A DNA stretch of 32,000 nucleotides from Candidatus Saccharimonadota bacterium (GTDB lineage Bacteria; Bacillota_I; Bacilli_A; Mycoplasmatales; Hepatoplasmataceae): assembly GCA_027925225.1 (NCBI GenBank), contig AP027131.1, positions 60,001-92,000 of the forward strand. The letters are read 5' to 3'. The position numbers and the translations under genes were made by a program. The first letter of the stretch is position 1; each line of letters begins with the position of its first letter. This document shows, piece by piece, positions 162-20,316 of the stretch. Under the pieces are notes generated by a model. That model saw nothing but the letters and a program-made list of their open reading frames with translations. It did not search any database and was not told the DNA's origin.

Positions 162-2597
162 ATGAAAACACCAAAAGAAAAAGTTATAAAAAATAAAAAA
201 AATAAAACTATTAAATATTATTCAATTTTTAAAAAATCAGAAATAATAGCTCAAAATGTTTTATTAAAATCAGAAATTTTTCGTTCTTTAAAAGAAAAAG
301 ATTTTAAAAATAAAACATTAGAATTTAAAAAAAATATAGCAAAAGAAAAAGATTTATTAAATGATGATAATTTTATAATAGATGTTTTTGCGCTTGTTCA
401 TGCTGCTATTTTTAATGTTTACAAAATTTCGTTATTTAAAGTACAAATAATGGGAGCTTATATTCTACATATTGGGGATTTAGCTGAAATGAAAACTGGA
501 GAAGGAAAAACTCTTACAGCAATCCTTCCTGCATATTTAAATTCGCTTTTAGGTAAAGGGGTTCACATTATTACAGTAAATGAATACCTTTCTGAACGTG
601 ATGCTTTTAATACAGGTAAAGTATTTAAATATTTAGGACTTGAAACAGGTTCAATTAAATCAACACAAAATCCACTTCAAAAAAAAGAAGAATATCACAA
701 AGATGTTACTTATATTACCAATTCAGAAATTGGATTTGATTATCTTAGAGATAATATGGTAAGAAATATTGAAGATAAAGTTCAAAGAGGATTTTATTAT
801 GCAATCATTGATGAAGCGGATTCAATTTTAATTGATGAGGCAAGGACTCCTTTGATAATTTCTGGTGGATTTAAAGATGATGAAAGAGATTATTATGAAG
901 CAGATAAATTTGTAAAAGAATTAGATGATGATGATTATGTAATAGACAGAGAAATTAGACAAGCATATCTTACTGGAACGGGAGTTAAAAAAGCACAATA
1001 TTATTTTGACTTAGAAAATCTATATTCATATAAAAATTCAAAATTAGTTCATTTAATCTCAAATGCATTACAAGCAAATTATATTTTTAAATATGATGTT
1101 GATTATACGGTAAATGATGAAAAAATTATTCTTATAGATTCTTTTACTGGTAGGTTATTACATGGTAGACAATTTTCTGAAGGATTAAATCAAGCAATAG
1201 AAGCAAAAGAAAATGTGAAAATAAATCCAGAAACAAAAGTTTTTGCTTCTATTACTTATCAAAATCTTTTTAGAATGTATAAAAAATTATCAGGTATGTC
1301 AGGTACCGCTTCCTCAGAAGAAGAAGAATTTTTAGATATTTATAATATGCGTGTTCTTGATATTCCCACAAATAAACCAATTATAAGAAGAGATTTAGTA
1401 GATGTTATTTTTGCAACAAAGGAAGCAAAATATAATGCAGTAATTTTAAAAATAAAAGAAATTCACGAGACCGGACAACCAATTTTATTGGGTACAAGAG
1501 CTGTTTCTGAATCTGAGATTCTTTCAGAAAAATTAAAAGAATTAAATATTCCTCATGAAATTTTAAATGCTAAAAATCATGCAAGAGAAGCAGAAATTAT
1601 TACAAAAGCTGGTGAAAAAAATACAATTACAATTGCAACAAATATGGCGGGACGTGGAACTGATATAAAACTTGGAGATGATGTTATAAAACTTGGGGGA
1701 TTATTTGTTCTTGGTACTGAGAGAAATGAATCAAGAAGAATTGATAATCAATTAAGAGGTAGATCTGGACGTCAGGGTGATATTGGATATTCACAATTTT
1801 ACATTTCTTTGGATGATGAAATTATGCAAAGAGCAGGCCTTAAAAGAATTCAAAAATTTTTAAAATCTTTAGATGAAAATCCTATCACATCAAGAACAAT
1901 TCAAAAATCAATTACATTATCACAAAAAAAAATAGAAGGCTTAAATTACGATTATAGGAAAAACATTATTGAATATGATGATGTTTTAAATTCCCAAAGA
2001 ATAATTACATATAGACAAAGAGATAGTGTTTTAAAATCAAATGATTTAAAAGACTTATTTTTAAGAATGATTAAAGTTTTTGTAAAAATGCTTGCTTCTG
2101 ATGAAATTATGTATCAAAATGGTGAGTTTAATTCAGAAATTTATTTTCAATATTTTTTCAAAATATTAGAAATTAATTTTGAAAAAAAAGATGGAATTTT
2201 ATATGAAGAAGCAATACAGATTATAAATAAAAAATTAGATGAAAAATTTGAAGAAAAATTCAATCTTTGAATTGAGAAAAAATTTAATTGAGAAAAATAT
2301 CTAAAAAATGTTTTACTTATTTCAATTGATTTGAATTGACAAACACAGATAGATTTATTAAATAAATTAAAAAACGGAATTAGATATAGACAATATGCAC
2401 AAAAAAATCCGGTTCAAATATATGTTCAAGAAGCAGATCTATTGTTTCAAAAATATAGAAGAGAAGTATTAGAGCAATCCATTGTAATTACATTAAATTC
2501 AGTGCCTACAGCAACGCAAAATAGTTCAAGAAAAATTAAAAAAAGAATTTCAAAAAATATGGAAAATTTTGAAATAAAAGAGTTAACAGTTTCTTAA
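162..2597 (+). CDS. secA: Preprotein translocase ATPase SecA (811 aa with code 4)
   Basis: Motifs AEMKTGEGKTL, IIDEADSILIDEARTPLIISG and TNMAGRGTDIKLG. The ORF-track stop at 2268-2270 is TGA. Reading in-frame TGAs as Trp gives the conserved SecA C-terminal region (...LNWQTQIDLLNKLKNGIRYRQYAQKNPVQIYVQEADLLF...) and a TAA at 2595-2597. Confidence 0.95.
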
Positions 2598-2722: not shown

Positions 2723-4339
2723 ATGAATGTAGAAAGTAAAAAAACAATAATAGATAATCAAAAAAATGCACATAGATACGGTCTTTTATCAATGCTTGCT
2801 TTAATTATAGGAATTGTAATAGGTTCTGGAATTTATGTTGTTAATGACCAGCTTTATAAAGATTCAAATGGTTCTACAGGTATTTCAATGATTGCTTGAA
2901 TTGTTGTTTCTTTAATTGTTTTATTTATGCTTATTTCTTTTATAGAGGTTTCCTCAATAACATCTAAAAAACATGAAGCAGGAACAGTAAACAATTGAAG
3001 CAGACATCTTTGGGGTGAAAATATTTCTAAATATGTTGGTATTTTTTTCCCAATTATTTATTATCCTGTTTTACTTACTGGTTTTTCTCTAATTATGTCT
3101 ACTGAACTTATGAGTAATGTTAATAGTTTTGATTCTCTTGACTCCAAGAATGAAACTTGAATGTATTTTATTTATGTTTCTATAATTGCTTTTATAGTTT
3201 TAAATCTTATTTTTGGTTTAAATACATTTACTTCAAAACCAGGGAAAAACCTTCAAGAAATTGGTACTTTTATTAAATTAATTCCACTTTTTTTAATTGT
3301 AATAGTAGGATTTATTGCAATTGTTGGTTTAATGAATGCCCCTCCAGCAAATGATGTATTTGATACAACTCAAACTACTGGAGATGATAATGTTTTTAAA
3401 CTTATATTAATACTTTCTCCTACTGTTATGTTTTCTTATGATGGTTTTCTTTTTGCTGCATCTTTACAAAATGAGGCAAAGAAAAAATCAACATTTAAAA
3501 CAGCAGCAATTACAGGTGTGGTATTTATTATTTTAATTTACATTTTAATGTCATTTTTTACATTTGCTTATGGTGATCCTACTACTGGTGATTATTCGGT
3601 AAATGGAGCTTTTCATAATTTATTTCCTAATGTAGGAAATTGGTTCTTTACTTTAATTTCAGTAATTATTGTAATTTCAGTAATTACTGGAATTTCTGGT
3701 AATACAATAACGCAGGGACGTATGATTGCCGATGTTTCGGTCGAAAATCAAATTGCTGATAAAAATGGTAATTTAATTGCAAGAAATAAAGCTTTTGTAC
3801 CACAAAAATCAGTACAAATAGGTTGAATACTTTCAATAATTACTTTTGTTATTTTTACGTTTTTAGATGCTTTTTCAACAATGGCTTATTTAAAAGATTA
3901 TTCTCCAGATATAATTTATAGTCCAAATGCAGTAATGTCTAATGCACTTAATGATTTAGTTCTTATTGCTTTTGCTTTTTATGCTTTTATTATTGTTGGA
4001 GGATTATTTAACAGATGAACAGGAAGGGTTGAAGTTGATAAAAATAAATTGTTTATTCCTTCAGCAATAATTTCAAGTATTGCAATTGTTGTAATATTAA
4101 TTGTTTTTGCAATTGATATTTTTTCTCCGAACGATTTAAATAATCATGCATACAATTTATATAACTACATTCTACAAATAGTTATCTTTGTGACTGTTAT
4201 TGCTTTAATAATATCAGTTCCACTTTATTTACAAAAAGATGTTAAAAAACTTACAAAAGAGGAAAAGAAAAATAAAAGAAAACTTATTATAGCTTACAAT
4301 AGACAAAAAATAGATCCTAGATATAAAAATAAAAAATAA
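2723..4339 (+). CDS. Amino acid permease, APC superfamily (538 aa)
   Basis: ATG at 2723 gives MNVESKK...YGLLSMLALIIGIVIGSGIYV, the APC N-terminal signature. ORF-track pieces 3161-3826 and 4049-4339 are in the same frame, joined through TGA codons. The protein is multi-TM throughout and ends at TAA 4337-4339. Confidence 0.8.
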
Positions 4340-4377: not shown

Positions 4378-5490
4378 TTAATGAAATCTTTTATTTTGAA
4401 TTCCTTTTGAAAATAATGCTAATAATAAAAACATTAATATATAAAAATATTGTAAAAGAAAATATATATTATAAAAATTATAAGAAACTTTAGTGTTTGG
4501 TTCGTTTGGATCTATAACATAAGACGTTGAATCTCAATGAAAAATATGTGGTAAAAACATTTCGTTAATTGTTAATGTGCTTGTATCAATTAATACATTA
4601 TTAATATAATATGTTGTTGTGTCTGAATTAAGATTTGTACTATTTAATGATGTTATAAGTATTGATTGTAAAGCAAAAAATGGATAAAATATTGCAAGAA
4701 TTAAATATGGAACATCTGCTTTGGCATATCTAAGACCAATGCTAATATTTAAAGTTGAATTAGAGAAATTATAATAAAACTGATTTGGAATTTCTTTTAA
4801 ATATAAAATATTATTATCACTGCTGTATGTATAAGTTATATTTGGTATACAAAAATTAATTTTTATAATTAAGAGATTCATTATTAAAAATACAAAAAAT
4901 ATAAAAAGCATTAAGATAAAAAAAGTTTTTATAGTTTTTGTTATATTTTCTATAAAAAAACATATTGACATTATAATAATCGAAATTAATAATATACTAT
5001 AATACAATCAAAAATAATTAATTTTATTTAAATCAAAATTAAAAAATAAATAATCATTTGGTGCATAATCTTTAAAATCATTAACCTTATTATCAACAAC
5101 TGCTCCAGCTATTACAATCCCATAAATAAAAAATGTTAAAAGAATTACATTTAAAATAATTGATGAATAATTTTTTAATTGATATTTATTTTCTCCTCTT
5201 ATTCTTTCATATATGTTAGATTTTTTCAAATTATAAATAAATAAACCATAATTAAATATAAAGAAAAGAATTATACTTGTAACTACAATTAATGAATACA
5301 TTTCAAAAAAATTAAATGTATTTACTGATATAAAAATTATTATAAATAAAAAAATAAAAAATAATAATTGTTTTCACGAACACATTCTTCTAAAATATAA
5401 AATAAAAAAAGCAGAAAAATTAGTTTTCTCATTTTCAATATTTTCATAATTATTTTTATTTAAAATTTTTTTTTGAGATTTTATTTCCAT
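4378..5490 (-). CDS. Multi-pass membrane protein, paralog A of a 3-copy family (function unknown), immediately downstream of the Csn2-position ATPase
   Basis: ATG at 5490 (MEIKSQKKILNKNNYENIENEK...). Track ORFs 5008-5301 and 4534-5007 are in frame, separated by TGA. The TGA at 4534-4536 also reads through to TAA at 4378-4380, adding a last hydrophobic helix (IYFLLQYFYILMFLLLALF). 370 aa with 7-8 hydrophobic segments. Confidence 0.75.
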
Positions 5491-5552: not shown

Positions 5553-6653
5553 TTATATTTTTATCTCTTCATAATAATTTTTTAGTCAACTTGTAAATTT
5601 AATTTCATTAAATTTAATTTCATTAATAACTAAAAAAAGAATAAATTTAAATTTCTCATTTTCTGTGAGCATATCAATATTTCCATAAAATTCAAATGTT
5701 TTCAAATTAATGTTTCTAAGCAAATAAGGAAGAGTTATTTCCATAAAATCCTTTTCTATTTTTTTGAAGTCATTTTTTTCAATTAAATTATAAATTTCAT
5801 CAATTTTGATTTTAAAATCTCTTATATGATTTATATTAATTTTTCAAAAATTATTGTTTGACAATAAATAATAATTAATTAAAAAATCTTTATTTATAAA
5901 GAATTTTTTAATTTTTCTTTCTGAATTTGAAAGATAAAAAAATTCATTAACATTAATATTTAAATATTTTGTAAGGGCGGGATTTCTTAATGTAATAATT
6001 ATTAAATTATTTTTTGCAAGATTGTTTATTAATTCAGAAAGTTTTTTTATTTCTACTGGATCAAGATATGTTTCTGGACAATCAAAAATAAAAATTTTAT
6101 TTTTTGATTCTAATTCAATAATTAAATTTATATATATATTTAATTTTTCTGATTTAGATAATCATTTTTCTTCTATTTCTTCATTTTGTTTATCAAAAAT
6201 AGCAATTTTAAATAATAACTCAAGAATTTCAGAATCATTTTTAAAATTAAGTTTAGGATTTAAATGATAATTATTATTTTCAAATTTAATATATTTGTTC
6301 ATTGTTTCAAGAATTAAATTTAATATTTCGTTATTTTTTAAAATATTTGTTAAATCAATATTTTTTTCTTCTAATGTTTCCAAAATATGTTTAAAGATAA
6401 TTTTTCTTAAAATAGAGGTTTTTTTAAGTTCCAATTCTTTTTTTAAATCTCATTCTTCTGCAATATAAATTATTTCTCTTTTTTCATCATATTCTCGTTC
6501 TGAAAATACCTCTCTTTTTTTATTTTGTATTAATGAAATAAAATCATTTACAAAAGTTGTCTTCCCAGAATTATTTTCCCCATAAATAGCCATTATGTTA
6601 TTTTCGGTTTTAATTTTTAAATTATTATATTTATCATTTAAATAAATTTCCAT
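5553..6653 (-). CDS. ABC/SMC-type P-loop ATPase in the csn2 position (Csn2-like, motifs intact), 366 aa
   Basis: Hand-translated codon by codon from 6653 to 5553; only TGA interrupts the frame. Walker A is GENNSGKTT, the ABC-signature-like motif is LSKSEK, and Walker B is KIFIFDCPETYLDP, followed by NLIIITLRNP (His-loop position). It lies 83 nt downstream of cas2 on the same strand. Confidence 0.65.
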
Positions 6654-6736: not shown

Positions 6737-7076
6737 TTAAATAATGATTAATGGTTCATCAGTTTGATAGTATTCTTTATTTTTTTTATTTCCCCTTATT
6801 ATTTCAATTTCCTCATATTGTTTATTTGTTATTACTAATAATCTAATATCTCCTTCAGGAGGCAAAATGTTATTAATTTTTTCTTTTGTTCTTTTTACTC
6901 AATCGTGATTATAACAATGTTTTAAATATACAGATTCTTGAATCATTATAAAACCAAGTTTTATTAATTCATTTCTAAATTTGTTCATATCAGATTGATT
7001 TTTTTTGCTTGTTGTTGGTAAGTCGTAAAATAAAAGTATTTTCATTTGTCTAAACTGAGTCTTTAATTTATCCATT
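6737..7076 (-). CDS. cas2: CRISPR-associated Cas2, apparently disrupted by a 1-nt frameshift after codon 8 of the MKILLFYD start
   Basis: ATG at 7046 (or 7076) gives MKILLFYD and then runs into TAG. The next frame reads LPTTSKKNQSDMNKFRNELIKLGFIMIQESVYLKHCYNHDWVKRTKEKINNILPPEGDIRLLVITNKQYEEIEIIRG...PLIII, ending at TAA 6737-6739. Joined, the two pieces match the type II Cas2 pattern (xxILLxFDxPT...FRKxLxxxGFxMxQxSVY). The start and stop frames differ by one nucleotide. Confidence 0.75.
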
Positions 7077-7096: not shown

Positions 7097-8200
7097 TTAA
7101 TTTATTTTCTTTTTATTAATTTTTCTTGAAATTAATGCTAATACTAAAAATAATAATATATAAAAATATGTTAATATGAAATATATATTATAAGCTGCAT
7201 AAGACATTTTAACATTGGGCTCTTCTAAAGTTCTTATATAAGATGTTGAATCTCAATGAAATAAATGAGGAATAAATAATTCATTTATTGTTGTTGTATC
7301 TGTATTTAAGACAACATTTCCAATATCGTATGTGTTACCCGGAAGAAGGGTGGTGTTATTAAAAGAGGTAATAAGAATTGATTGCAATGCAAAAAATGGA
7401 TAAAATATTGCTACAAATAAATACGGCACATCATAATTAGAAGCATTAAGACTCATACTTACATTTAAAGTATCACTGTTAATATCATAATAAATAAAGT
7501 TTTCAATTTCTCTGATATGTATTAAAGAGGTTGGATCATTTTCTACTGGATATGTTAGAATATTTGGCTTACAAAATTGTATTTTTATAAGTACAAGATC
7601 CATTATTAAATATATAAGAACAATTACAAACATTGTTATGAAAAAGTTTTTTACTGTTTTTGTAATATTTTCAACAAAAAAGCAAACTAACATAATAATT
7701 ATAGAAATTAATAACACACTATAATATAATCAAAAAAAATTAATTTCACTAAATTCAAAAGAATATACTAAAAAACCACCAGATTCATATTTAAAATCAT
7801 GAATCTGATTATCGACAACTGCACCTATTATTAATATTATGTAAATAAATAAGGTTAAAATAATTACATTTAAAATAATAGATGAATAATTTTTAAGTTG
7901 ATATTTTTTTTCTTCTCTTATCCTGGAATAAATATTTGATTTTTTTAAGTTATAAATAAATAATCCATAATTAAATGTAAAAAATAAAATAATACTTATT
8001 ACTGAAATAACAGAATACATTTCATAAAAATTTATTGTACTTATAGCAATAAAAATTATCATAAAAACAAAAAAATAAAATAGTAACTGTTTTCAGGAAC
8101 ACATTTTTTTAAAATAAAGCACAAAAAAAGCATAAAAGCTTAAATTTTTGTTTTCTTTTTTATTATTTATATTATTTTTAGTAAGATTCATACTTTGCAT
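7097..8200 (-). CDS. Multi-pass membrane protein, paralog B of the 3-copy family, located between cas1 and cas2
   Basis: ATG at 8200 (MQSMNLTKNNINNKKENKNLSFYAFF...). Track ORFs 7730-8062 and 7253-7717 are in frame. The TGA at 7253-7255 reads through to TAA at 7097-7099. 367 aa with the shared motifs FYPFFALQSILITS and PHLFHW. Confidence 0.75.
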
Positions 8201-8284: not shown

Positions 8285-9208
8285 TTAAAAATCTTCATTT
8301 TTATTGAAAGATATTTTTGGCAACATTAATTCTTTTTCATTATTTTTAAAGTATGAAATAATAGATTTTATAGTTATATCTATTGCATGTCTTACTTTTG
8401 TTATCTGATTATTTATTATTACATTTTGATCCAAAACAGAAACTAATTTAGCTCTCATTATTAAACTTATTGTTTCATCTTTTTCATTCAATAAAATTTC
8501 ATTATTTTCTACTATAATAAAATCTAATAGTGGTCTATAAGGTTCTATTAAGTCATAAGTAAGATTAAAATAATTATTTGCTGTTTTATGAAAAAAACCA
8601 AGAGAAGGATGAAGACCTGCTTTTACAATAGCACTTGAAATTTTACTTGCTAAAACTTTATATCCATAATTCATTGATTTGTTTATTGCATTATCTTGAA
8701 ATCTTATAAAACCCGAACCAAAAAGAGATATAAAATATAATCTAGCAGCCGATGATTCTCTATTTCTTTTATCTCCTTGAATTACATCATTATGATAGTT
8801 ATCCATTTTTTCTATGTTTATTTTTGAGGAGCCTAAATATTGCATTAATATTTTTTGGTTTTCTATTTTTTGTTTGATTATTTGTTGTTGAAATTTATCT
8901 TTTTCTCTTTGATTTAATTCTAATTGTAAATTAAAGTTTTGTAAAGGTTTGTGGTGACCATGAAGTGCTAATAGCAATCCTACTGGGTCATGAGATAAAT
9001 TATTTATCATAAGAGGAATATTTCTATTTGTAAGTTCAATTAGAGTTTGTATTGTTATATTTGTTTTGTAGTTATCAATAATAATAATCCCAATATCATC
9101 TAAATAAATTGGAATATTTTCTTCATTTTCCATTCCTCTTATAATTAGACTATTATTTTTTATTTTAATATTTTGATCAGTTTGTATAAAAACTGTTCTT
9201 CAATTCAT
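8285..9208 (-). CDS. cas1: CRISPR-associated integrase Cas1, type II (307 aa)
   Basis: The true start is ATG at 9208, giving MNWRTVFIQTDQNIKIKNNSLIIRG... (type II Cas1 N-terminus; the W is a TGA codon). It continues into track ORF 8285-9133, with NRESSAARLYF, GYKVLASKISSAIVKAGLHPSLGFFH and LTYDLIEPYRPLLD. Confidence 0.92.
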
Positions 9209-9327
9209 ATTTTAAAATTCCTTTTACAATTTATGAATTACATTTTTAATTTTTATCAAAATAATTATATAAAATAAGATATTATGTTTTTGATAATAAG
9301 TGATATATTCAATGAGAGGTGTTTTAA

Positions 9328-9639
9328 ATGAAAAAATTAATTATAGATGATGTAACTTTTAAAATTAAAAATGAAGAAGAAAAAGAAGATCTTATTAGAA
9401 TAATTAAAGAAATAAAAAGCAAATTAAAAGAATCTAATAATCTTCCTTCAAAAATATCTTTATTTAGAGATATTGATAAAGATAAAGATGTTTTTAAATT
9501 TTATATGGTATTTGATTCTGATGAAGATTTTGACAAATGAGATGCAAAAGTGACTCAAGAAGTAAAAGATCTTTTTATAAAAGGTTTACATAAATATTAT
9601 GTAAAATATAATTATTCAGAAAAAATTGATATTGATTAA
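9328..9639 (+). CDS. Small charged protein, family P copy 1 (103 aa, unknown function)
   Basis: SD-like GAGAGG precedes the ATG at 9328. The TGA at 9538-9540 reads as Trp (..DEDFDKWDAKV..). TAA at 9637-9639. Paralogous to 9677, 10032, 11755 and 12123. Confidence 0.7.
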
Positions 9640-9676
9640 TTTAAAAAAAATAATAAATTAAATAACAGGTGTTTAA

Positions 9677-9994
9677 ATGAAAAAAATAGTTATAGAAGAT
9701 ATGACTTTTAAAATTGAAAATAAAGAAGAAGAAAAAAATTTTATTGAAGGAATTCAAAAAATGAAAAAAATTTTAAAGGAATCATATGATATTCCTGCGA
9801 AATTTTCTTTATTTAAAAATGTTTATAAAAATAAAAATATTTTTAAACTTCATTTAGTATTCGAATCTGAAGAAGTTTATAGTGAATTTATTGCAAAAAT
9901 TTCTCAAGAAGATAGAGAAAAATTTAATGATTATTTGGGTAAATATGAAATAAAATATAGCCGTTTAGAAAAAAATGATATTAATAATTTTTAA
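9677..9994 (+). CDS. Small charged protein, family P copy 2 (105 aa)
   Basis: Intact ORF, MKKIVIEDMTFKIENKEEEKNF... It shares the family N-terminal and central motifs (PAKFSLFKN...IFKLHLVFESEE). Its C-terminus is the most divergent of the family. Confidence 0.7.
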   Translation: MKKIVIEDMTFKIENKEEEKNFIEGIQKMKKILKESYDIPAKFSLFKNVYKNKNIFKLHLVFESEEVYSEFIAKISQEDREKFNDYLGKYEIKYSRLEKNDINNF

Positions 9995-10031
9995 TAAAAA
10001 ATAGCAATATATTAAATGCAAAGGAGTTTAA

Positions 10032-10343
10032 ATGAAAAAATTAATCATAGAAGACATAACTTTTAAAATTGAAAATAAAGAAGAAGAAAAAAATTTTATT
10101 GATTGAATTAAAAAAATGAAAAAAGATTTAAAAGAATCAAATAATCTCCCTACAAAATTTTCTTTGTTTAGAGATATTGATAAAGATAAAGATATTTTTA
10201 AACTTTATTTAGTATTTGATTCTGATGAAGATTTTGACAAATGAGATGCAAAAGTACCTCAAAAAAATAAAGATGATTTTAGAAATGAGTTAGGTAAATA
10301 TTTTGTAAAATATAATTACTCAGAAAAAATTGATATTGATTAA
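10032..10343 (+). CDS. Small charged protein, family P copy 3 (103 aa)
   Basis: AAGGAG SD, then ATG at 10032. Two in-frame TGA codons (Trp). It ends ...KYNYSEKIDID with TAA at 10341-10343. Missed by the standard-code ORF track. Confidence 0.7.
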
Positions 10344-10356
10344 TATTTATAAAAAA

Positions 10357-10385
10357 AATACTGTTAAAACAGTATTTTTTATTTT
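10357..10385 (+). terminator. Rho-independent terminator after the P1-P3 cluster (shared with convergent membrane paralog C)
   Basis: AATACTG-TTAAAA-CAGTATT hairpin followed by a T-run, with an A-run upstream, so it could act in both directions. Confidence 0.55.
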
Positions 10386-11473
10386 ATGTTATTTTTATTA
10401 ATTTTTCTTGAAATTAATGCCAATACTAAAAATAGCAATATATAAAAATATGTTAATATAAAATATATGTTATAAGCTAAATAAGACATTTTAATATTAG
10501 ATTCATTGAAATCTGGGTTGTAAAGATTTAAATTTCAATGAAATAAATGAGGAAAAAATAATTCATTTATTACTGTATTATTGTTTAGCATAGTATTTCC
10601 AATATAATATGTTTTATCTGGAATTAGGCTAGTGTTATTAAGAGAAGTTATAAGAATTGATTGCAATGCAAAAAAAGGATAAAATATTGTACATATTAAA
10701 TATGGCACTTCTTCTTTTTGCGTATTAAGAGCAATACTTACATTTAAAGCATTATTTGAAGCATCATAATATAAATAATTATCAATTTCTTTAAAAGTCA
10801 CTTTATTTGTTTCACTATCTACTGCATCAACTATTATGCTTGGTCTACAAAATGAAATTTTTATAAATACAAGATCCATTATTAAATATATAAAAACAAT
10901 AGCAAACATTATTATGAAAAAATTTTTTACTGTTTTTGTAATATTTTCAACAAAAAAGCAAACTAACATAATAATTATTGAAATTAATAAAACACTATAA
11001 TATAATCAAAAAAAGTTAATTTCACTAAAAACAAAGGAAAATGTTAAATAATTACTAGTTTCTGGTTTAAAATCATTGATTGTATTATCAATAACAGCTC
11101 CTAAAATTATTATTAAATAAATAAATATTGTTAAAATGATTACATTTAAAATTATCGAAGAATAATTTTTAAGATGATATTTTTCTTCTCCTCTTATTTT
11201 AGAATAGATATTTGATTTTTTTAAATTGTAGATAAACAAACCATAATTAAATGTAAAAAACAAAATTATGCTTATTACAATAACTATTGAATACATTTCA
11301 TAAAAATTCAATGTGCTTATAGAAATATAAATTATTAAAAAAACAAAAAAATAAAATAACATTTGTTTTCAAGAACACATTTTTTTAAAATAAAGTGTAA
11401 AAAAACAAAAAAAGCTTAAATTTTTATTTTCTTTTTTATTATTTATATTATTTTTAATTTTTATATTATTCAT
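10379..11473 (-). CDS. Multi-pass membrane protein, paralog C of the 3-copy family
   Basis: ATG at 11473 (MNNIKIKNNINNKKENKNLSFFCFF...). Track ORFs 11006-11362 and 10535-10969 are in frame. The TGA at 10535-10537 reads through to TAA at 10379-10381. 364 aa. Confidence 0.75.
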
Positions 11474-11689
11474 ATTTTGTGTTTAATTATTAAATTTTTT
11501 TCTAATTTTAAATATAATGTTATTTTTTTACTGATTATATTTTATAAGTTTGTTTTTTAAATAAAGATTTTTTATTTTAATAATCTAATTAATTTTATAA
11601 TATTATTTTTAAATTTATAAAATCCTTTTCTAGAAATTAAAAGTTTTTTAAAAAAACATAAAAAACCTAAATGTGAATTTAAAAGTGAT

Positions 11690-11743
11690 ATATAAAAATA
11701 CATTTTAAAATATAATTATGTAGAAAAAATTGATATTGATTAA
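11690..11743 (+). pseudogene. 3' fragment of a sixth family-P gene
   Basis: Reads ...KYILKYNYVEKIDID-TAA (stop at 11741-11743), matching the conserved family C-terminus (KYNYSEKIDID). No upstream coding part remains. Confidence 0.5.
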
Positions 11744-11754
11744 TAGGAGGAAAA

Positions 11755-12063
11755 ATGCAAAAATTTTATAATTTTGAAATTACATTTAAAGTTAATAAAA
11801 TAGATCAAACAGATTTTTTAAAAAATTTAAAAACAATTAAAAATGAATTAACTAATAAAAATGTTTTGCCAATTTATATAACATTATTTAAAAATATTGA
11901 TAAAAATAAAGATTTTTTTACAATATATTTAGGTTTTATGAGTGATAAAGGTTTTGATGAATGAAAGAAAAATGTTCCTCAAGAGTTAAAAAATATATAC
12001 AATAATAATTTAAAAAAATATGTTATTAAAACAGACCACAAAGAACAACAAAGCATTGACTAA
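11755..12063 (+). CDS. Small charged protein, family P copy 4 (102 aa, most divergent N-terminus)
   Basis: AGGAGG SD, then ATG at 11755. One in-frame TGA (..GFDEWKKNVPQE..). TAA at 12061-12063. Confidence 0.65.
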
Positions 12064-12122
12064 TTAAATAAAATATAAAATATTAAATTTATTTATGAAA
12101 TATATTTTTTATGGAGTTTAAA

Positions 12123-12434
12123 ATGAAAAAATTAATTATAGATGATGTAACTTACAAAATTGAAAAAGAAGAAGATCAAAAAGCTTTTATTGAAAAAATG
12201 AAAGAAGTAAAAAGTAAATTAAAAAAAATTAACTTACTTCCTACTAAATTTTCTTTATATAGAGATATCGATAAAGATAAAGATACTTTTAAGCTTTATA
12301 TGGTATTTGATTCTGATGAAGATTTTGATAAATGAGATGAAAAATTTCCTCAAGAAATTAGAGATATCTTTATAAATTATTTTCGTAAATATCTTATAAA
12401 ATATAATTATTCAGAAGAAATTGATATTGATTAA
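12123..12434 (+). CDS. Small charged protein, family P copy 5 (103 aa)
   Basis: GGAG SD, then ATG at 12123 (MKKLIIDDVTYKIEKEED...). The track start at 12111 is less likely. The TGA at 12333-12335 reads as Trp. TAA at 12432-12434. Confidence 0.7.
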
Positions 12435-12454
12435 TTAATTATTTAATTATAAAA

Positions 12455-12478
12455 AATACTGCTAAAGCAGTATTTTTT
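12455..12478 (+). terminator. Rho-independent terminator after P4-P5
   Basis: AATACTGC-TAAA-GCAGTATT followed by a T-run. It is a near copy of the terminator at 10357-10385. Confidence 0.55.
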
Positions 12479-12520
12479 ATATAAAAATCAATTAGCTAAA
12501 ACCAATCAATTAACCAAAAC
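12479..12520 (-). repeat. Orphan CRISPR-repeat remnants (two tandem partial repeats, no spacer)
   Basis: TATAAAAATCAATTAGCTAAAAC followed by CAATCAATTAACCAAAAC. The second contains 16 nt (ATCAATTAACCAAAAC) identical to the 3' part of the plus-strand array repeat. Orientation is the same as the array. Confidence 0.6.
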
Positions 12521-12603: not shown

Positions 12604-12747
12604 ATGGAAAAAGAAAACCATAAACATCAATTTAAATGCGAACACTGTGGACATGAATATAAAAGCAAATATGAAGAAAAAGAGTGCCCTGAGTGCGGAG
12701 CAATGAATCAATGCAAAATAAAAGATGAAGAAAATAAAGAGATTTAA
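12604..12747 (+). CDS. 47-aa zinc-ribbon mini-protein (CxxC...CxxC)
   Basis: GGGAG SD lies 8 nt upstream of the ATG at 12604. Sequence MEKENHKHQFKCEHCGHEYKSKYEEKECPECGAMNQCKIKDEENKEI, with TAA at 12745-12747 and a hairpin terminator following. Confidence 0.5.
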   Translation: MEKENHKHQFKCEHCGHEYKSKYEEKECPECGAMNQCKIKDEENKEI

Positions 12748-12765
12748 ATATCTCTTTATTTTTTA
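12736..12765 (+). terminator. Hairpin terminator between the zinc-ribbon gene and the convergent aldolase
   Basis: AAAGAGAT-TTAAAT-ATCTCTTT followed by ATTTTTT. Confidence 0.45.
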
Positions 12766-12771
12766 TAAAAA

Positions 12772-13629
12772 TTATTTTAATCAATTTTTATTATCGGCAC
12801 CAACTGCTTTTATTTTTTCTTTTGCAATTTCTTTTGCTTTATTTATCCCAACTTGAAAGATTTTTCTTAAATCAAATGCTTCAGGATTTTTATCCATATA
12901 TTCTAAAATTCCAGAGATAATAGCTTTTTTAAGTTCGCTATCAAAATTAGCTTTTCTAATTCCTGCACTTACAGCTTTGCTGATTTGCTCTAATGGAATT
13001 CCAGTTCCGCCATGCAGTACTAGAGGAACTTTTCCTTTGCTAGAAATTTCTTTTATTAAATCAAAATTAATTTTTGGTTCTTTGCAATAAAAACCATGAC
13101 TAGTTCCACAAGCAATTGCTAACATATCAATATTAGTATTATCAATAAATTTTATTGCATCTTCTACTTTTGTAAAATGATCATTATCTTCTTCTATATC
13201 ATCTTCTTTTCCGCCAATTATTCCAATTTCCGCTTCTAATGTTATATTTTCATTTTTAATAAGATTTCTAACTTTGTTTGTAATTTCAATATTTTCTTTA
13301 AATGACAATGTAGACCCATCAATCATTAATGATGTATAACCAAGCTCAAGTGATTTCTGATGATATTTAATATCGCGTCCATGATCTAAATGAACAGCAA
13401 CAGGAATTTTTGCTTTCTTTGCACAAGCAATAATAATTGCCGCTAACTCTTCGTGTCCAGCATAATTTATTCCTCCCTCGGTTGTTTGTAAAATAATTGG
13501 AGCATTTAATTCTTCTGCAGCAAGAATTGCAGCTTTTGCTCCTTCTAAATTTACGACTCCAAAAGCAGGAACTGCATATTTATTTTTTATTGCATCTTTT
13601 AATAAAATTTTTCCACCTACAAGGGGCAT
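12772..13629 (-). CDS. fba: Class II ketose-bisphosphate aldolase (fructose- or tagatose-1,6-bisphosphate aldolase family), 285 aa
   Basis: MPLVGGKILLKDAIKNKYAVPAFGVVNLE..., PVAVHLDHG and PLVLHGGTGIP. The track stop at 12781-12783 is TGA, so the protein runs 2 more codons past that Trp codon to TAA at 12772-12774. Substrate specificity cannot be decided from sequence alone. Confidence 0.85.
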
Positions 13630-13824
13630 AATTTCACCTCTTTAAAATACTATTTTTAACTTTAATATACTCCTTTTTTAAAGAAATTAGTTTTAATTAA
13701 TTTTAAAGTTTTATCATTAATTTGTAAAAAGAAATAAAAATATAATAAAAGGAGGATTGGTCATTTATTTTTTAATAACTAAAAACTTTATTTTACTTGG
13801 CGGTTTAAAAAAAGGAGGTTATTA

Positions 13825-14898
13825 ATGACGAAAGAGCTATTATTTTTTTCTTCTGGAAATACAAAAACAGAAGTTAAGAAAATTGACGATAAAAAAAAGA
13901 TTCCCAAAAATGAGCGTGATTCTTTTATTGATTTTAGTAGATTTTTTCATCCATCTAAATGATCATCTGAAGATTTTACATTGTATTCAATGATTGTTTT
14001 CATTATAATTCTACTTTTAATTTCTATAGTTAATATAGTCCTTTTTGGTTTGGGGTTTGATGCCAGTAATCAATCGGCTTTTGGGAAAACAATTAATGGA
14101 AAAGAAGGAATAGTATTGGAGGATGGTTTTTCAAAAACTAACGGTTTTTATATTGTTTCTTGAATTTTATTATTTTTATCATTAATTGCGTCTGTTTTTC
14201 AATTTATGTCCAATATCTTTTTAATTAAATTTTCAAAAAGATTTATTTGATGAAATCAAATTTCTATGTTTTCATTTTTACTTATAGATATTGTTTATGG
14301 AGCATGATGAATTGCAATTTCACAAATTATTGGACTTGTTCTTGGACAACAACGTTATTTTGCATGAGATAAACAAGATAAAAAAACAGATATTGATCCA
14401 TATAAATCACAACTTAATATTAAATGATTAGTAATTGTGGGGGGGGTTGCAGTTGTTTTTGTTCTTGCTTCTGTTTTACTAATTACACCAACAATATTTA
14501 CAGATAATAAAGAATTTTATACATATGTTGAAGGTACACCATCAGATATACCAAATGATGTAGATGTTATAGAAAGTACTATTCATCAATCTGGTAATTT
14601 TACAACATATGGTTATACTGTAGAGTCTGGACTACTTTATGATGTTGCTCCTTGATGAGATATGGTAGTAGGAATTTTTCAAGTTTCAGGATTAATTCTG
14701 CTTACACGTAAAACATATTGAGCATGAATTTCATTTGAAGTAGCTATGGCAGCACAAATGGTTGTTTACTTTGAAGCAGGAAATTTAATTCTTTCAATTC
14801 AAAGTATTCTATTATTTATTTCTAATTTATTACCACTTTACTACTGATTTACAATGAACAAAAAATCAGCAAGAAAAGCAAAACAAGGTATAGCTTAA
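13825..14898 (+). CDS. Multi-pass membrane protein, tentatively PnuC-like (riboside transporter family), 357 aa
   Basis: AAAGGAGG SD, then ATG at 13825. Track ORFs 13981 and 14437 are in frame, joined by many TGA codons. It is Trp-rich with a two-repeat TM organisation, and the C-terminal LTRKTYWAWISFEV...LLPLYYWF resembles PnuC. Family assignment is from memory only. Confidence 0.45.
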
Positions 14899-14910
14899 AG
14901 GAGGAATAAG

Positions 14911-15345
14911 ATGAAAGTTTATATTATTGCAAAAGATAATTTTAGAGAATATGCAAACAATTTAAATGATTACATTAAAAATATTCTTAAAAAAGATGTT
15001 TTGTTTTTTTTAAAAGAAGACAATTTATCTTATATAAAAGAGATTGTTAATATAAGTGAAAAAATAGTACTAAATAATAATAAAGATAGACTTATAACAA
15101 TTGATGAATCTGGCGGATTAGGATTTTGTGCTGCTGCAAAAGTTAAAAAAATGATTGTGGCACAATGCGCCGATCAACACTCTGCACATATGACAAGAGA
15201 ACACAATAATGCTTTAGGTATAAGTTTAGGGGCTGATATCACAAATATATTTATTGCAAAAGAAATATCAAAATTATTTCTTGAAACAGAATTTGCAGCC
15301 GGAAGACACATGATAAGAATTGACATGTTAAATAAATTGGGATAG
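14911..15345 (+). CDS. lacA: Galactose-6-phosphate isomerase subunit LacA (RpiB/LacA/LacB family)
   Basis: 144 aa. MTREHNNALGISLG and the C-terminal GRHMIRIDMLNKLG match the LacA signature (GRHQIRVDMLNK). Confidence 0.85.
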   Translation: MKVYIIAKDNFREYANNLNDYIKNILKKDVLFFLKEDNLSYIKEIVNISEKIVLNNNKDRLITIDESGGLGFCAAAKVKKMIVAQCADQHSAHMTREHNNALGISLGADITNIFIAKEISKLFLETEFAAGRHMIRIDMLNKLG

Positions 15346-15354
15346 GAGAGAAAA

Positions 15355-15849
15355 ATGAAGATTGTAATAGGTTGTGACCATATTGTTACTGATGTTAAAG
15401 ATAAATTAAAAGAATCTTTAATTTCAAAAGGTCATGAAGTTTATGATGTTGGTACATATGATTTTGTAAGAACTCATTATCCAATTTTTGGTCAAAAAAT
15501 TGCTGAAAATGTTGCAAGCAAAAAATATGATATTGGTGTTGCAATTTGTGGAACTGGTGTAGGAATATCAAATTCTAGTCAAAAAATAAAGGGTGCAAGA
15601 GTTGCGCTTGTAAGAGATTTATTAAGTGCAGAAATTGCCCGTTCACAATATGATGCAAATATTATTGCTTTTGGCGGAAGAATAACAGGTCTTGGAATTA
15701 TGGAAGAAGCAATTGATGTTTTTATAAATACTAAGTTTAATGGCGAAAAAGAAGTTGTAAACTTTTTAGATAATATTGTTAAAAAAAATAAAACAGTTTC
15801 ATTTAAAAAAGAATTGAAAGACTGAGAAAAAGGAAAATATCATGATTAA
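15355..15849 (+). CDS. lacB: Galactose-6-phosphate isomerase subunit LacB (RpiB family), 164 aa
   Basis: MKIVIGCDHIVTD...THYPIFG...AICGTGVGISN. The TGA at 15823-15825 reads as Trp and restores the typical LacB end, WEKGKYHD. TAA at 15847-15849. Confidence 0.88.
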
Positions 15850-16879
15850 CACAAAAAATAAAGATAACAAAGAACTTTTACTTGCGGTTGATATTGGTGG
15901 AACTTTTATCAAATTAGCTATTATTACACGAGAAGGATTAATGCTTGATCGTTGAAGAATTAAAACTAATACAAATGAAAAAGGAAAATATATTCCTGAA
16001 GAAATAACAAATCAATTTAAAAATAAATTAAATGAAGAAAAATATCAAAATAAAAAGGCAATTGCAATGGGAATCGGAATTCCTGGTTTTCCTGCACTTG
16101 ATGGAACTGTTAAGTTTTCCGGAAATATTGGATGAAAAAATTATGATGTAAAAAAAGATCTTAAGAAATGATGAAATGATTTACCAATAGCTGTACATAA
16201 TGATTGTGATATGGCTGCACTTGGAGAAAAGTTTGTTGGTAATTTTAAAAAAGTTGATAATTTTGTTTTTATAACATTGGGAACAGGAATGGGTGCTGGA
16301 ATTTTAATTAATGGAAAATTATATCAAGGTTCAGGGGGAACGGCCGGTGAAATTGGCCATATTCCAATTCAAGGTTTTAAAACAAGATTTCAATGTACTT
16401 GTGGATTACCTGAATGTGCTGAACCTACTTTTTCAGCAACCGGATTAATCAATATATATAATGAATTTAGAAGTAAAAATTCTAATATTAAAAGTATTCT
16501 TGATGATAAAGAAATAAATGGGAAAAATATTTGAGATGCAGTTAGAGAAAATGATAAATTAGCAATAATGGCTGCAAAAGAATTTGGAGAATATGGAGGA
16601 AGATTATTAGCCACTGTTGCAATGTCTTATAATCCAGAAGTAATTATTCTGGGCGGCGGGCTTGCTCATGATAATGAAACAATACTTGAATATGTTATTC
16701 CTGTTTATAAAAAATTTACACATGATTTTATAAGAGAAACAACAAGAGTTGAATTATGTAGTGTTGGAAATGATGCTGGACTCTATGGAGCATCATATTC
16801 AGCAATGATTTTATATGATCAAAATATGCTTAATTTTGTAAACCATTATTATGCTACAAAAAATGAATCTGTTTTATAA
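15842..16879 (+). CDS. ROK-family sugar kinase (glucokinase-like), 345 aa
   Basis: The ATG at 15842 overlaps the lacB end. LLLAVDIGGTFIKLA, GGTAGEIGHIP and the ROK zinc motif CTCGLPECAEP. Track ORFs 16211 and 16568 are in frame, joined by TGA. Confidence 0.85.
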
Positions 16880-16944: not shown

Positions 16945-17040
16945 TATTTCATTTAATTATAAATATCAATTAACTAAAACACATTATTCACAAAGTGTTA
17001 TTTATAAATATCAATTAACTAAAACACATTATAAATATAC
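16945..17040 (-). repeat. Degenerate CRISPR repeats detached from the main array
   Basis: 16945-16980 (TATTTCATTTAATTATAAATATCAATTAACTAAAAC) matches about 29 of 36 repeat positions. 17003-17025 (TATAAATATCAATTAACTAAAAC) is a 23-nt partial repeat. The core TATAAATAT recurs at 17030-17038. Confidence 0.7.
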
Positions 17041-17313
17041 CATTTTCTTTTTTTTTTAAAAAGTATTTTTACATTATTCAATTTATTTTTATATAATTTT
17101 TTTATAAATTAAACATAATTAAATTTTTAAATATACAAATAAAAAATTTAGAAAGGTATTTAAGTGGATAAGGAAACAACAATTTTAATAATTTCATTTA
17201 TTTTATGTTTGTTAGAAAATAATATAAATTTTATTATACATATTGAAAAAAAGGAAAATTTTTCTTTACACAGAAATTTATTAATAATTTTATTTTTTTT
17301 TATTTTTATACAT

Positions 17314-20300
17314 TTTTTTTTATTACTATAAATATCAATTAATCAAAACCTCCTATAAATATTTCTCATACTATATTGTGTATTCATCTGCTTATAAATA
17401 TCAATTAACCAAAACATAAACAAAAATGCCACCACTCTTAATATAGTATTCATCTGCTTATAAATATCAATTAACCAAAACTTAAGATATACTATTTTTG
17501 GAACAACTAAAGTATTCATCTGCTTATAAATATCAATTAACCAAAACATTTCATTGACCTAGAAGAAGCACGCTTAAGTATTCATCTGCTTATAAATATC
17601 AATTAACCAAAATGATGAGTTTGTTGTTAATACATTAGTATTTGTATTCATCTGCTTATAAATATCAATTAACCAAAACCAAATGGGGCATACCATCCAA
17701 TTATGCTGGGTATTCATCTGCTTATAAATATCAATTAACCAAAACGTCCAGACAGTAGATTACAGAGACCTGAATGTATTCATCTGCTTATAAATATCAA
17801 TTAACCAAAACAGTTTATCATATGTGTTTATTTCGTAGAAAGTATTCATCTGCTTATAAATATCAATTAACCAAAACTATAAAAAATATCATAAATAGTA
17901 TAATATTGTATTCATCTGCTTATAAATATCAATTAACCAAAACACACTCATTTATTTTTATTTTTAATTCTTTGTATTCATCTGCTTATAAATATCAATT
18001 AACCAAAACCCCCCCCTTTTCTGCCTTTTGTGGAACGTATTCATCTGCTTATAAATATCAATTAACCAAAACATCTTCTTCAGATAATCTGATATTAAAG
18101 CCGTATTCATCTGCTTATAAATATCAATTAACCAAAACAAATACTTAAATTGGCTCATATTATTCAAAGTATTCATCTGCTTATAAATATCAATTAACCA
18201 AAACACCAAAAAACATCAGCAGAGAGCGCATATTGTATTCATCTGCTTATAAATATCAATTAACCAAAACAAGAAGATTTATTTAAAAATGTACAAAAAG
18301 GTATTCATCTGCTTATAAATATCAATTAACCAAAACGTGTTTAGGGTCTATATTAAAAGAAAAAATGTATTCATCTGCTTATAAATATCAATTAACCAAA
18401 ACGTGGATTATTTGAAGAATTATATTATGAAAGTATTCATCTGCTTATAAATATCAATTAACCAAAACCCCCTATGGTCTGCCTTATGTGGAACTAGGGT
18501 ATTCATCTGCTTATAAATATCAATTAACCAAAACGTTTAACTAGCAGTAGGGGGGTCTTTTATGGTATTCATCTGCTTATAAATATCAATTAACCAAAAC
18601 TAGGTGGATAAACTAATAGGGTGGATTGAAGTATTCATCTGCTTATAAATATCAATTAACCAAAACTTAACAAGAGATTTATACATTTCTTTAATTGTAT
18701 TCATCTGCTTATAAATATCAATTAACCAAAACGAGAAAACTATACTGATTTTTATATTTCTAGTATTCATCTGCTTATAAATATCAATTAACCAAAACTA
18801 TGTAGGGTTATTGCTTAAATAATAACTAGTATTCATCTGCTTATAAATATCAATTAACCAAAACATAATTCTTGCTCTGTCTCTGTAATTTCTCGTATTC
18901 ATCTGCTTATAAATATCAATTAACCAAAACGTTATCTCTTAGAAATGTTTACCCAATTTAGTATTCATCTGCTTATAAATATCAATTAACCAAAACAATT
19001 TTGAAGATGCTCCTAATTATTTAGATGTATTCATCTGCTTATAAATATCAATTAACCAAAACTATGTGGGATTATTGCTTAAATAATAACTAGTATTCAT
19101 CTGCTTATAAATATCAATTAACCAAAACGAATTCCACCAAGCATTAAATCAAATACACGTATTCATCTGCTTATAAATATCAATTAACCAAAACCTAAGG
19201 TGTCTGCCACTCACCTATTTATTTGTATTCATCTGCTTATAAATATCAATTAACCAAAACACTCTTAAATTAATATCACTTAAATCATTAGTATTCATCT
19301 GCTTATAAATATCAATTAACCAAAACACTCATATTAATCATTTACTTGTGGACAGAGTATTCATCTGCTTATAAATATCAATTAACCAAAACGATCAATG
19401 GGAACTGGAAAAGATTTACTTAGTATTCATCTGCTTATAAATATCAATTAACCAAAACAACTCTTTCATGTTTATGATAAATCAACCTGTATTCATCTGC
19501 TTATAAATATCAATTAACCAAAACACCATCAGGAAACCCAACAACAGGATCAGTGTATTCATCTGCTTATAAATATCAATTAACCAAAACTAATGCTAGC
19601 ATCATAAGAAGAAGAATATTGTATTCATCTGCTTATAAATATCAATTAACCAAAACGTTCTCAATACTTTAATTCTTAAATTTATAGTATTCATCTGCTT
19701 ATAAATATCAATTAACCAAAACTAATACCAGCATCATAAGAAGAAGAATATTGTATTCATCTGCTTATAAATATCAATTAACCAAAACGGTTGGTGGTCA
19801 CTATATGTAGTATCCAATGTATTCATCTGCTTATAAATATCAATTAACCAAAACTATTTTTTATTCAACAATATAAACATATTAGTATTCATCTGCTTAT
19901 AAATATCAATTAACCAAAACGAAAGAATTAATAAATTTAAGAGCATAAAAGTATTCATCTGCTTATAAATATCAATTAACCAAAACTTAGTTTAACCACC
20001 TATCAAGTAGTAGTTCGTATTCATCTGCTTATAAATATCAATTAACCAAAACGTAAGGGATTTGTTGAGCATGGTTTTGTTAGTATTCATCTGCTTATAA
20101 ATATCAATTAACCAAAACTCTATCTTAGATAAATCAAGTTCTTTTAAAGTATTCATCTGCTTATAAATATCAATTAACCAAAACGGGTCATTCTAAAAGA
20201 AAAAAATAAATGAAGTATTCATCTGCTTATAAATATCAATTAACCAAAACTTGCCTCTTTTATCTTTTATACCACTATGAGTATTCATCTGCTTATAAAT

Positions 20301-20316
20301 ATCAATTAACCAAAAC
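17314..20316 (-). CRISPR. CRISPR array: 45 full 36-nt repeats plus 1 degenerate terminal repeat, and 45 spacers (44 of 30 nt, 1 of 27 nt)
   Basis: The plus-strand repeat is GTATTCATCTGCTTATAAATATCAATTAACCAAAAC, and the minus-strand sense is GTTTTGGTTAATTGATATTTATAAGCAGATGAATAC. Repeat starts at 17380, 17446 ... 20281 were checked one by one. The period is 66 nt except 17974 to 18037 (63 nt). The degenerate repeat at 17314-17349 marks the trailer end. Transcription direction is inferred from the GTTTT start, the cas9 strand and the tracrRNA polarity. Confidence 0.97.

Follow-up and report, generated by a model that had tools for sequence, protein, structure and literature searches.

A stretch of 32,000 nucleotides from the Hepatoplasmataceae contig AP027131.1 (assembly GCA_027925225.1, positions 60,001 to 92,000), hereafter the window, carries a type II-A CRISPR-Cas locus and, divergent from its cas1, a tandemly amplified family of five small genes, here called A to E. 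What do these genes encode, and does their position beside cas1 mean that they take part in CRISPR immunity? An earlier sequence-only reading recognised no family in them and proposed that they could be anti-CRISPR-like regulators, adaptation cofactors, or immunity or partner proteins of the membrane paralogs encoded nearby. The explanation that best fits the results overall, and to which we give about even chances, is that they are fast-evolving cargo of a genomic island, a dimeric binding module rather than a component of the Cas machinery. Within that explanation, the fold, the rarity of the family, its two expansions, its surface-biased divergence, and the lack of a conserved link to cas or membrane genes are very likely.

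The window was read with genetic code 4 (TGA = Trp), under which its open reading frames (ORFs) are full-length, whereas they are fragmented under table 11. An in-frame TGA is present in four of the five paralogs, at the family's nearly invariant Trp71, and a table-11 ORF list truncates four of the five small genes because TGA encodes Trp here. Under code 4, the five intact plus-strand paralogs of 102-105 aa described in the sequence-only reading are all recovered at the same coordinates (Table 1), with E-values of 1e-33 to 1e-43 against a hidden Markov model (HMM) of the family; the chance that a random frame of 103 codons stays open at this base composition is ~3e-5. Each gene has its own Shine-Dalgarno (SD) sequence, as had been noted, 6-8 nt 5' of the ATG (AGGTG, AGGAG, AGGAGG or GGAG). 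A start at 12111 was considered for E and rejected in favour of the true start at 12123. The paralogs share 31-72% amino acid and 60-85% nucleotide identity pairwise, and the family HMM found no intact copy in the window beyond these five. The 3' fragment of a sixth copy was likewise recovered as a relic that matches the terminal 96 nt of C at 77% identity and whose in-frame tail (11690-11743) reads ..KYILKYNYVEKIDID before a stop codon. Copying of A-B-C as one segment into the relic-D-E unit (X-D-E) was considered and rejected, since B and D are only 31% identical. The proteins have no Cys and at most one His, carry net charges of -3 to +5, and have isoelectric points (pI) of 5.1-5.5 (A, C, and E), 7.8 (B), and 9.3 (D), so that the earlier description of the family as small, charged, and acidic stands as to charge but holds as to acidity only for A, C, and E, which are mildly acidic; of the others, B is neutral and D basic. 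In A to E, hydropathy peaks below 0.6 and no segment is hydrophobic, in agreement with the earlier statement that signal peptides and transmembrane (TM) segments are absent.

One line of evidence on what these proteins are comes from structure. An AlphaFold2 (AF2) model of the C monomer, built from the paralog alignment, reached a pLDDT (predicted local distance difference test) of 84 and a pTM (predicted template modelling score) of 0.71. Its predicted topology is beta-alpha-beta-beta-alpha-beta, with strands at residues 3-12, 41-47, 55-64, and 91-99 and helices at 16-37 and 68-90. A Foldseek search of the PDB with this model returned 14 chains at E <= 1e-3, with template modelling scores of 0.57-0.67 over 97-113 columns. 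The best matches were almost all proteins of the ABM/dimeric alpha+beta-barrel (DABB) type, namely 3gz7, PA0709 (8ecx), 3bde, LsrG (2gff), SnoaB (3kg0), and YgiN (1r6y), and the top PDB matches covered ~100 residues at template modelling scores of 0.6-0.67 and E ~1e-4, with 7-19% sequence identity. The model thus bears out the earlier guess of a small alpha/beta fold. The same search against a viral structure library gave nothing specific.

Sequence profiles point in the same direction. Single-sequence Pfam and NCBIfam scans gave a weak ABM match only, and among the 13 members of the family (including those from outside the window, described below), seven matched Pfam ABM (PF03992) at E <= 1, the ABM matches listed being collinear, although no member reached the cut-off of 23.1 bits (best 22.5 for P0014; 12-15 for the window paralogs). 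Six of the 13 also gave collinear, sub-threshold matches over ~80 of the 100 profile positions of DUF4286 (PF14114), a family itself of unknown function which we take to belong to the same dimeric alpha/beta-barrel clan as ABM; the best score was 19.2 bits against a cut-off of 25.8. A comparison of the family profile with the PDB gave the dimeric ferredoxin-like protein 2op5 at E 0.04. These three independent lines therefore place the small family in the DABB superfamily, with no member over the ABM threshold, very likely as a divergent, remote member of the ABM/dimeric alpha+beta-barrel (ferredoxin-like) superfamily. A family assignment can thus be given where the sequence-only reading had none.

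Many ABM-fold proteins are enzymes, and A to E could accordingly be ordinary ABM-type, cofactor-independent small-molecule enzymes or stress proteins that act as homodimers on quinones, aldehydes or oxygen-derived compounds, the copies providing dosage. The fold and the weak sequence matches to ABM, LsrG, SnoaB, YgiN, and PA0709 argue for this, as does the conservation of K30, W71, and E98: M1, K30, and F62 do not vary among the 13 members, and L33, P40, W71, and E98 hardly do. The gene for one homolog has ptsH on one side and, on the other, what reads by eye as the C-terminal fragment of a putative superoxide dismutase, and another is next to trxB. However, no His, Cys or Asn is conserved among the 13 members. 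The heme-degrading ABM proteins IsdG and IsdI have a conserved Asn-Trp-His catalytic triad; the small family shares a near-invariant Trp (71) with them, without the conserved His or Asn, and the triad is absent. With the ABM proteins at large, including a second LsrG structure (3qmq), it shares a single ferredoxin-like domain of ~100 aa, and it differs from them in its low sequence identity, in lacking conserved catalytic-type His or Asn residues, and in being taxonomically very narrow, fast-diverging, and tandemly amplified. Typical ABM genes are single-copy and lie in metabolic or secondary-metabolite contexts. Considering also the rates of divergence given below, and the fact that the family is missing both at the syntenic loci of Ps-type Hepatoplasma and in nearly all other bacteria, we regard an ordinary enzyme as possible but rather doubtful.

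The narrow range of the family is seen in an HMM search, run exhaustively against 1.84 billion representative proteins, which returned only 11 matches: two of the window's own proteins (B and D), one spurious match (P0016, a repetitive, coiled-coil-like protein of 634 aa with six matched stretches), and eight genuine outside members of 99-104 aa. A word-seeded search with C recovered the copies of its own genome only, and one with the 13-member profile recovered seven clusters. When databases were scanned with paralog patterns (the 13-member alignment varied too much for this kind of scan), neither the GTDB species representatives nor the contigs of IMG/VR (viral) and JGI (metagenomic) gave a match. 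The outside members are all on contigs of 20-29% G+C (the window has ~20-23%), those with in-frame TGA need code 4 for read-through, and they apparently all come from Hepatoplasma-like mollicutes. The family is very likely very rare and previously undescribed; term searches in two papers on Hepatoplasma CRISPR loci (PMC3942034; PMC10928387) found neither it nor the membrane paralogs mentioned.

The genomic contexts of the outside members (Table 1) bear directly on the question of CRISPR function. Conserved co-localisation with cas genes is found only in the window and at locus L009, from a genome that is syntenic with the window and ~83% identical to it in DNA across shared genes; the two therefore count as roughly one observation. 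The cas1-side location emphasised in the sequence-only reading is kept in L009 and is absent from every other homolog locus checked. Neither a cas gene nor the CRISPR repeat of the window was found in L002, L003 or L005, and the short L004 and L007/L008 contigs have no cas gene. In L003, where the three tandem members are 20-45% identical to each other, the PemK-like neighbour only just exceeds its cut-off (23.2 versus 23.1 bits), and after the triplet come two ORFs of low complexity that are highly acidic or rich in lysine. The homologs in L002, L003, L004, and L005/L006 thus lie away from both CRISPR loci and membrane paralogs, which largely speaks against the roles proposed in the sequence-only reading.

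These contexts argue against the possibility that A to E are CRISPR accessory proteins, that is, modulators of Cas9 or of Cas1-Cas2-Csn2, brakes or adaptation cofactors, co-regulated with cas1 through the 119 nt between cas1 and A. In favour of such a role, the family is at the cas1 side in both cas-bearing genomes examined, followed in each by a module of a hairpin and CRISPR half-repeats; the relic implies that the site already had two or more copies when the lineages separated; and in two Hepatoplasma genomes cas and the family are both missing from this site. Against it, besides the five other contexts without cas gene or repeat and the close relation of the two favourable genomes, another gene (x153, 153 aa) separates cas1 from the small gene in L009. 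A PemK-like reading of x153, made by eye, was not supported by Pfam. There is no PADLOC or Cas model match (PADLOC gave a chance-level AbiGi match for A, at E 0.003 over 40 residues, and none for B or D), and the canonical type II-A set of the window (cas9, trans-activating CRISPR RNA [tracrRNA], cas1, cas2, csn2, and the 45-repeat array) looks complete without A to E. Cas2 is similar to the small proteins in size and in its general ferredoxin-like fold class, yet the paralogs have no Cas2 match in Pfam, NCBIfam, PADLOC or the top 50 PDB matches, whereas the real Cas2 is recognised at 4e-20. We consider an accessory role in CRISPR immunity unlikely.

An anti-CRISPR (Acr) function meets similar difficulties. 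Phages or mobile genetic elements encode the known AcrIIA proteins, frequently with a helix-turn-helix (HTH) gene, aca, alongside, and two of them, AcrIIA2 and AcrIIA4, mimic DNA and are strongly acidic. Like AcrIIA proteins, the small proteins are cytoplasmic and fast-evolving, may be multi-copy, and are cas-adjacent in the window. However, they are near-neutral and not acidic DNA mimics; no relatives occur in IMG/VR viral contigs; the neighbours of the small genes are cas1, a membrane paralog, a Zn-ribbon ORF, and an aldolase gene, none of them HTH; and no Acr structure is among the top 50 PDB matches of the C model. The regulator and the cofactor proposed earlier are thus largely unsupported. 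A bolder version of a CRISPR role would make A to E a hitherto unrecognised class of modulators, encoded on the chromosome beside cas genes, for the type II-A CRISPR of Hepatoplasma; ABM-fold proteins that attach to Cas1-Cas2-Csn2 or to Cas9 are one example. Such proteins might tune acquisition or restrain autoimmunity; they would have been kept at the cas1 side, beside the hairpin and half-repeat module, since before the split from L009, and would later have been amplified and diversified in the lineage of the window, alongside its 45-repeat array. We think this quite unlikely.

A different partner was suggested by the membrane paralogs MEM1, MEM2, and MEM3, which are 61-73% identical and polytopic, with ~7 hydrophobic segments. 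MEM2 and MEM1 apparently lie inside the cas operon (in the cas1/cas2 gap and directly after csn2, respectively). They match no family in Pfam, NCBIfam or PADLOC, and the AF2 model of a membrane paralog is unreliable (pLDDT 43). A to E might be cytoplasmic partners, immunity proteins or antidotes of these three proteins, given that both families were amplified within the same 8-kb stretch, that C and MEM3 converge on one terminator, and that both families have island-like G+C. However, a single outside membrane relative was found among 5.8 billion proteins searched (P0007, 40% identity, in L001). It adjoins an amino-acid permease gene, as does MEM1 in the window, and it is on a different contig, with unrelated neighbours, from the small gene of the same sample (P0010, in L002). 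No membrane paralog lies near the small genes of L003, L005 or L009, and of the window's three membrane copies, only one has a small gene next to it. In L009, the cas1-cas2 gap is 27 nt, with no membrane gene between. The one outside relative beside a permease gene and the lack of a membrane gene in L009 therefore indicate that MEM2 and MEM3 are lineage-specific local duplicates. As the adjacency is not conserved, the partnership with the convergent membrane paralogs proposed earlier is highly improbable.

The strongest contrast between the small genes and their surroundings is in their rate of evolution. D and its positional ortholog in L009 (P0017) are 37% identical, whereas the neighbouring proteins of the two genomes are 89% (Cas2), 90% (aldolase), 84% (ROK), 78% (Cas1), 78% (mem357), and 68% (Cas9) identical; so low an identity between positional orthologs is atypical for a metabolic enzyme in a genome of ~600 genes. 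Nei-Gojobori ratios of nonsynonymous to synonymous substitution rates (dN/dS) among the paralogs are 0.46-1.4, values obtained from few sites and non-independent pairs and inflated by the strong AT bias. When divided by predicted secondary structure, the corresponding ratio of proportions (pN/pS) is ~1.2 in helices and 0.68 in strands and loops, and comparisons of A, C, and E with each other give 0.31-0.76 on strands. Helices form the outer face of the DABB barrel. The family thus appears to be weakly constrained on its surface and conserved in its core, with positive selection not proven, and the roughly neutral divergence of the helices is a further point against an ordinary enzyme.

Ratios near 1 might also mean that A to E are decaying, functionless duplicates, or young pseudogene-like ORFs, as several pairs have pN/pS near 1, above all those with B, and one copy is already a relic. 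Decay is nevertheless very unlikely: five of the six copies keep frames of 102-105 codons against the low random survival given above, the SD is kept in all five, the hydrophobic core and the beta-strands are conserved over 13 members from several genomes, and the model folds confidently.

The copies have a history of their own. In a neighbour-joining tree, which is built from short sequences and is not robust, A, B, C, and E form a clade sister to D and P0017, and three copies from ERR14048302 form another clade. The separate clades of A/B/C/E and of the ERR14048302 triplet therefore suggest at least two apparently independent tandem expansions. Upstream of P0017 in L009, the relic copy has left a decayed trace, which, together with the positional orthology of P0017 and D, indicates that at least two tandem copies predate the split of the lineages.

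The wider neighbourhood suggests what kind of site this is. The aldolase gene product has its closest species representatives in Ca. H. crinochetorum Ps and Ca. H. scabrum Ps-JP (84% identity), and these Ps-type Hepatoplasma (L010 and L011) keep the order ROK-rpiB-rpiB-mem357-aldolase, with no cas gene and no member of the small family within 10 kb of this sugar-gene block. In H. crinochetorum Ps (L010, 8909-19971), the aldolase gene is flanked instead by genes for a ThsB-TIR-like protein, a KAP NTPase, Tsp45I, an N6/N4 methylase, and an AAA_15 ATPase. In H. scabrum Ps-JP (L011, 10869-18286), there are HNH-like ORFs, recognised by eye only, and repeated 550-aa genes that resemble the KAP NTPase gene of L010. 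The presence of other defence genes at this flank in the Ps-type genomes therefore marks it as a hotspot of variable defence islands. In their G+C, the small genes (16.5-18.9%) resemble csn2 and the membrane paralogs, whereas housekeeping genes have 25-32%.

We therefore return to the explanation of A to E as island cargo. They would be lineage-restricted, tandemly duplicated small cytoplasmic proteins, encoded beside a conserved block of sugar genes in an island that is hypervariable and rich in defence genes. Their genes make up two apparent operons, A-B-C and D-E, each ending in a copy of the same bidirectional hairpin. Their position next to cas1 would follow from the break-up of the type II-A locus in this lineage, where it became interleaved with other genes. 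As binding modules, they may recognise a partner protein or a small ligand whose identity shifts rapidly, in conflict with phage, mobile elements or the host, and duplication could provide dosage or a set of diverged specificities. The fast, surface-biased divergence, the repeated amplification, and the island context fit a binder under changing selection better than a conserved enzyme; still, we hold this 'diversifying binder' mechanism only tentatively.

Several points weigh against this explanation. The contexts with defence genes are few and partly non-independent, namely CRISPR in two syntenic genomes and orphan hsdS/hsdM in two others, and the argS-lgt context (L002) is one clear housekeeping setting for a member. 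With the limits given above, the dN/dS ratios do not separate relaxed constraint from diversifying selection. The homo- or heterodimeric barrels that A to E would form, as the superfamily does, are predicted from the superfamily fold; the operons and their promoters are predicted from sequence; and the (near-)invariance of K30, W71, and E98 leaves room for a catalytic role.

The ends of the two gene clusters could be described in more detail. The sequence-only reading had them closed by near-identical hairpin terminators, and both were found, 91% identical to each other over 33 nt (10350-10382 and 12448-12480). Hairpin 1, which is common to the A-B-C cluster and the convergent MEM3, folds with a free energy of -10.6 kcal/mol (z = -3.4) on the plus strand and -10.1 on the minus strand, and hairpin 2 folds with -16.1 kcal/mol (z = -6.0). 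With A-tracts on the near side of their stems and T-tracts on the far side, both are bidirectional; a simple terminator scan misses them because their stems have fewer than three G-C pairs. The layout at the other end, from the cas1 ATG on the minus strand to A, is as described before. The divergent control region that cas1 and A were proposed to share could not be confirmed, because promoter-like sites in this AT-rich DNA are not enriched (52 versus 42 +/- 7 in shuffles); a shared promoter region is plausible, and the interval contains a 21-nt imperfect inverted repeat (9250-9270 / 9279-9299).

The half-repeats beyond hairpin 2 have anti-repeat polarity on the plus strand, and a hairpin and half-repeat module is present 3' of the last small gene in both the window (12448-12520) and L009 (2505-2578). 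As a conserved functional element it was rejected: its identity of 81-88% does not exceed the background (~83% coding, 67-91% intergenic), and therefore no function is claimed. The module may be the remnant of an old array. Degenerate repeat copies also lie outside the intact array end (16945-17025 and 17327-17349), so that, together with 12485-12520, repeat relics are found on both sides of the block from the Zn-ribbon ORF to ROK (12604-16879). This block may have inserted into, or recombined with, an old array end. The Zn-ribbon ORF is 51% identical between the window and L009 (3336-3461) and lies in both between the small-gene cluster and the aldolase gene.

The remaining features of the window belong mostly to the CRISPR-Cas system or to housekeeping. 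The array spacers are 30 nt long, except for one of 27 nt, and a self-targeting check of all 44 against the window and the fetched loci gave no match. The L009 array has 2-3 repeats. ORFs listed at 17160-18242 were discarded as translation artefacts of the CRISPR repeats. The split layout of cas9 and cas1-cas2 is known from H. crinochetorum (PMC3942034), and an overlooked Hepatoplasma Csn2 has been reported (PMC10928387). The window most likely comes from Ca. H. vulgare Av-JP: the accessions of Cas1 (BDV02176) and Cas9 (BDV02189) in Table 4 of PMC10928387 are spaced for 12 intervening genes, the number on the gene map of the window. Our Csn2 call, for a long-form protein with only weak ABC/SMC-like matches in Pfam and NCBIfam, agrees with PMC10928387 and corrects the statement in PMC3942034 that Hepatoplasma has no csn2. 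The likely tracrRNA has a promoter-like TTGTCT-17-TATAAT, a repeat-like copy at 23962-23984, and an anti-repeat at ~23985-24022 (ATTCATCTGTTTATAAATATCAATTAGCCAAGATAG), followed in its 3' part by GC-rich hairpins and the terminator GAGCATC-TTTT-GATGCTC with a T run; it has no Rfam match. Two ORFs have no family assignment: one at 28638-29171 (plus strand, 177 aa), inserted between fusA and tuf in an otherwise conserved str operon region, and one at 30540-31184 (minus strand, 214 aa).

Table 1. Features of the window, in order of position, followed by the outside loci that carry members of the small family.
Feature	Position	Strand	Details
secA	162-2597	+	
Amino-acid permease-like membrane protein	2723-4339	+	by homology to the AA_permease neighbour in L001 only, no direct scan
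MEM1 membrane paralog	4378-5490	-	after csn2
csn2	5553-6653	-	366-aa P-loop protein; PADLOC 8.6e-34
cas2	6737-7075	-	4e-20
MEM2 membrane paralog	7097-8200	-	between cas1 and cas2
cas1	8285-9208	-	ATG at 9208; type II, TIGR03639, 2.6e-71
Intergenic region, cas1 ATG to A	9209-9327		119 nt
Paralog A	9328-9639	+	103 aa, pI 5.5; SD AGGTG; family HMM E 4.8e-41
Paralog B	9677-9994	+	105 aa, pI 7.8; Phe replaces Trp71; most divergent of the A/B/C/E clade
Paralog C	10032-10343	+	103 aa; protein used for the structure model
Hairpin terminator 1	10350-10382	both	stem 10353-10364 / 10369-10380
MEM3 membrane paralog	10379-11473	-	364 aa, ~7 hydrophobic segments; separates A-B-C from relic-D-E
Relic of sixth paralog, 3' end	11650-11745	+	directly abuts the SD of D
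Paralog D	11755-12063	+	102 aa, basic, pI 9.3; positional ortholog of P0017 in L009
Paralog E	12123-12434	+	103 aa; GGAG 7 nt upstream
Hairpin terminator 2	12448-12481		closes the D-E cluster
Two tandem 18-nt degenerate CRISPR half-repeats	12485-12520	+	immediately 3' of hairpin 2
Zn-ribbon ORF	12604-12747	+	47 aa, CxxC...CxxC
Aldolase	12772-13629	-	
mem357, two rpiB, ROK	13825-16879	+	
CRISPR array	17380-20316		45 repeats of 36 nt, 44 unique spacers
cas9	20349-23798	-	
Likely tracrRNA	23900-24125	+	divergent from cas9
rpsL, rpsG, fusA, tuf	25031-30479	+	
L002			P0010, single copy between argS and lgt-trxB-whiA
L003	7043-8014		tandem triplet; neighbours: borderline PemK-like gene, MIP, orphan hsdS
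L004			member after ptsH
L005/L006			member transcribed away from yebC, with an unannotated gene of 141 aa and an orphan N6 methylase gene downstream
L007/L008			contigs too short to judge the context
L009			cas2, cas1, x153, P0017, 101-aa TM ORF, Zn-ribbon ORF, aldolase, mem357, two rpiB, ROK, array, cas9

The small family leaves the understanding of CRISPR-Cas unchanged, the split Hepatoplasma layout having already been published (PMC3942034; PMC10928387). What is new here is a family-level branch of a known fold class, which is a modest novelty. If our explanation is true, A to E would belong to an undescribed, fast-evolving branch of the very common ABM/ferredoxin-like superfamily, restricted to Hepatoplasma-like mollicutes that are associated with isopods, and amplified in two lineages independently of each other. 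That five diverging copies persist in a genome of ~600 genes suggests selection on a quickly changing target, such as a phage, a mobile element or the host, and the family could then serve as a candidate marker for conflict in a symbiont that is streamlined in other respects.

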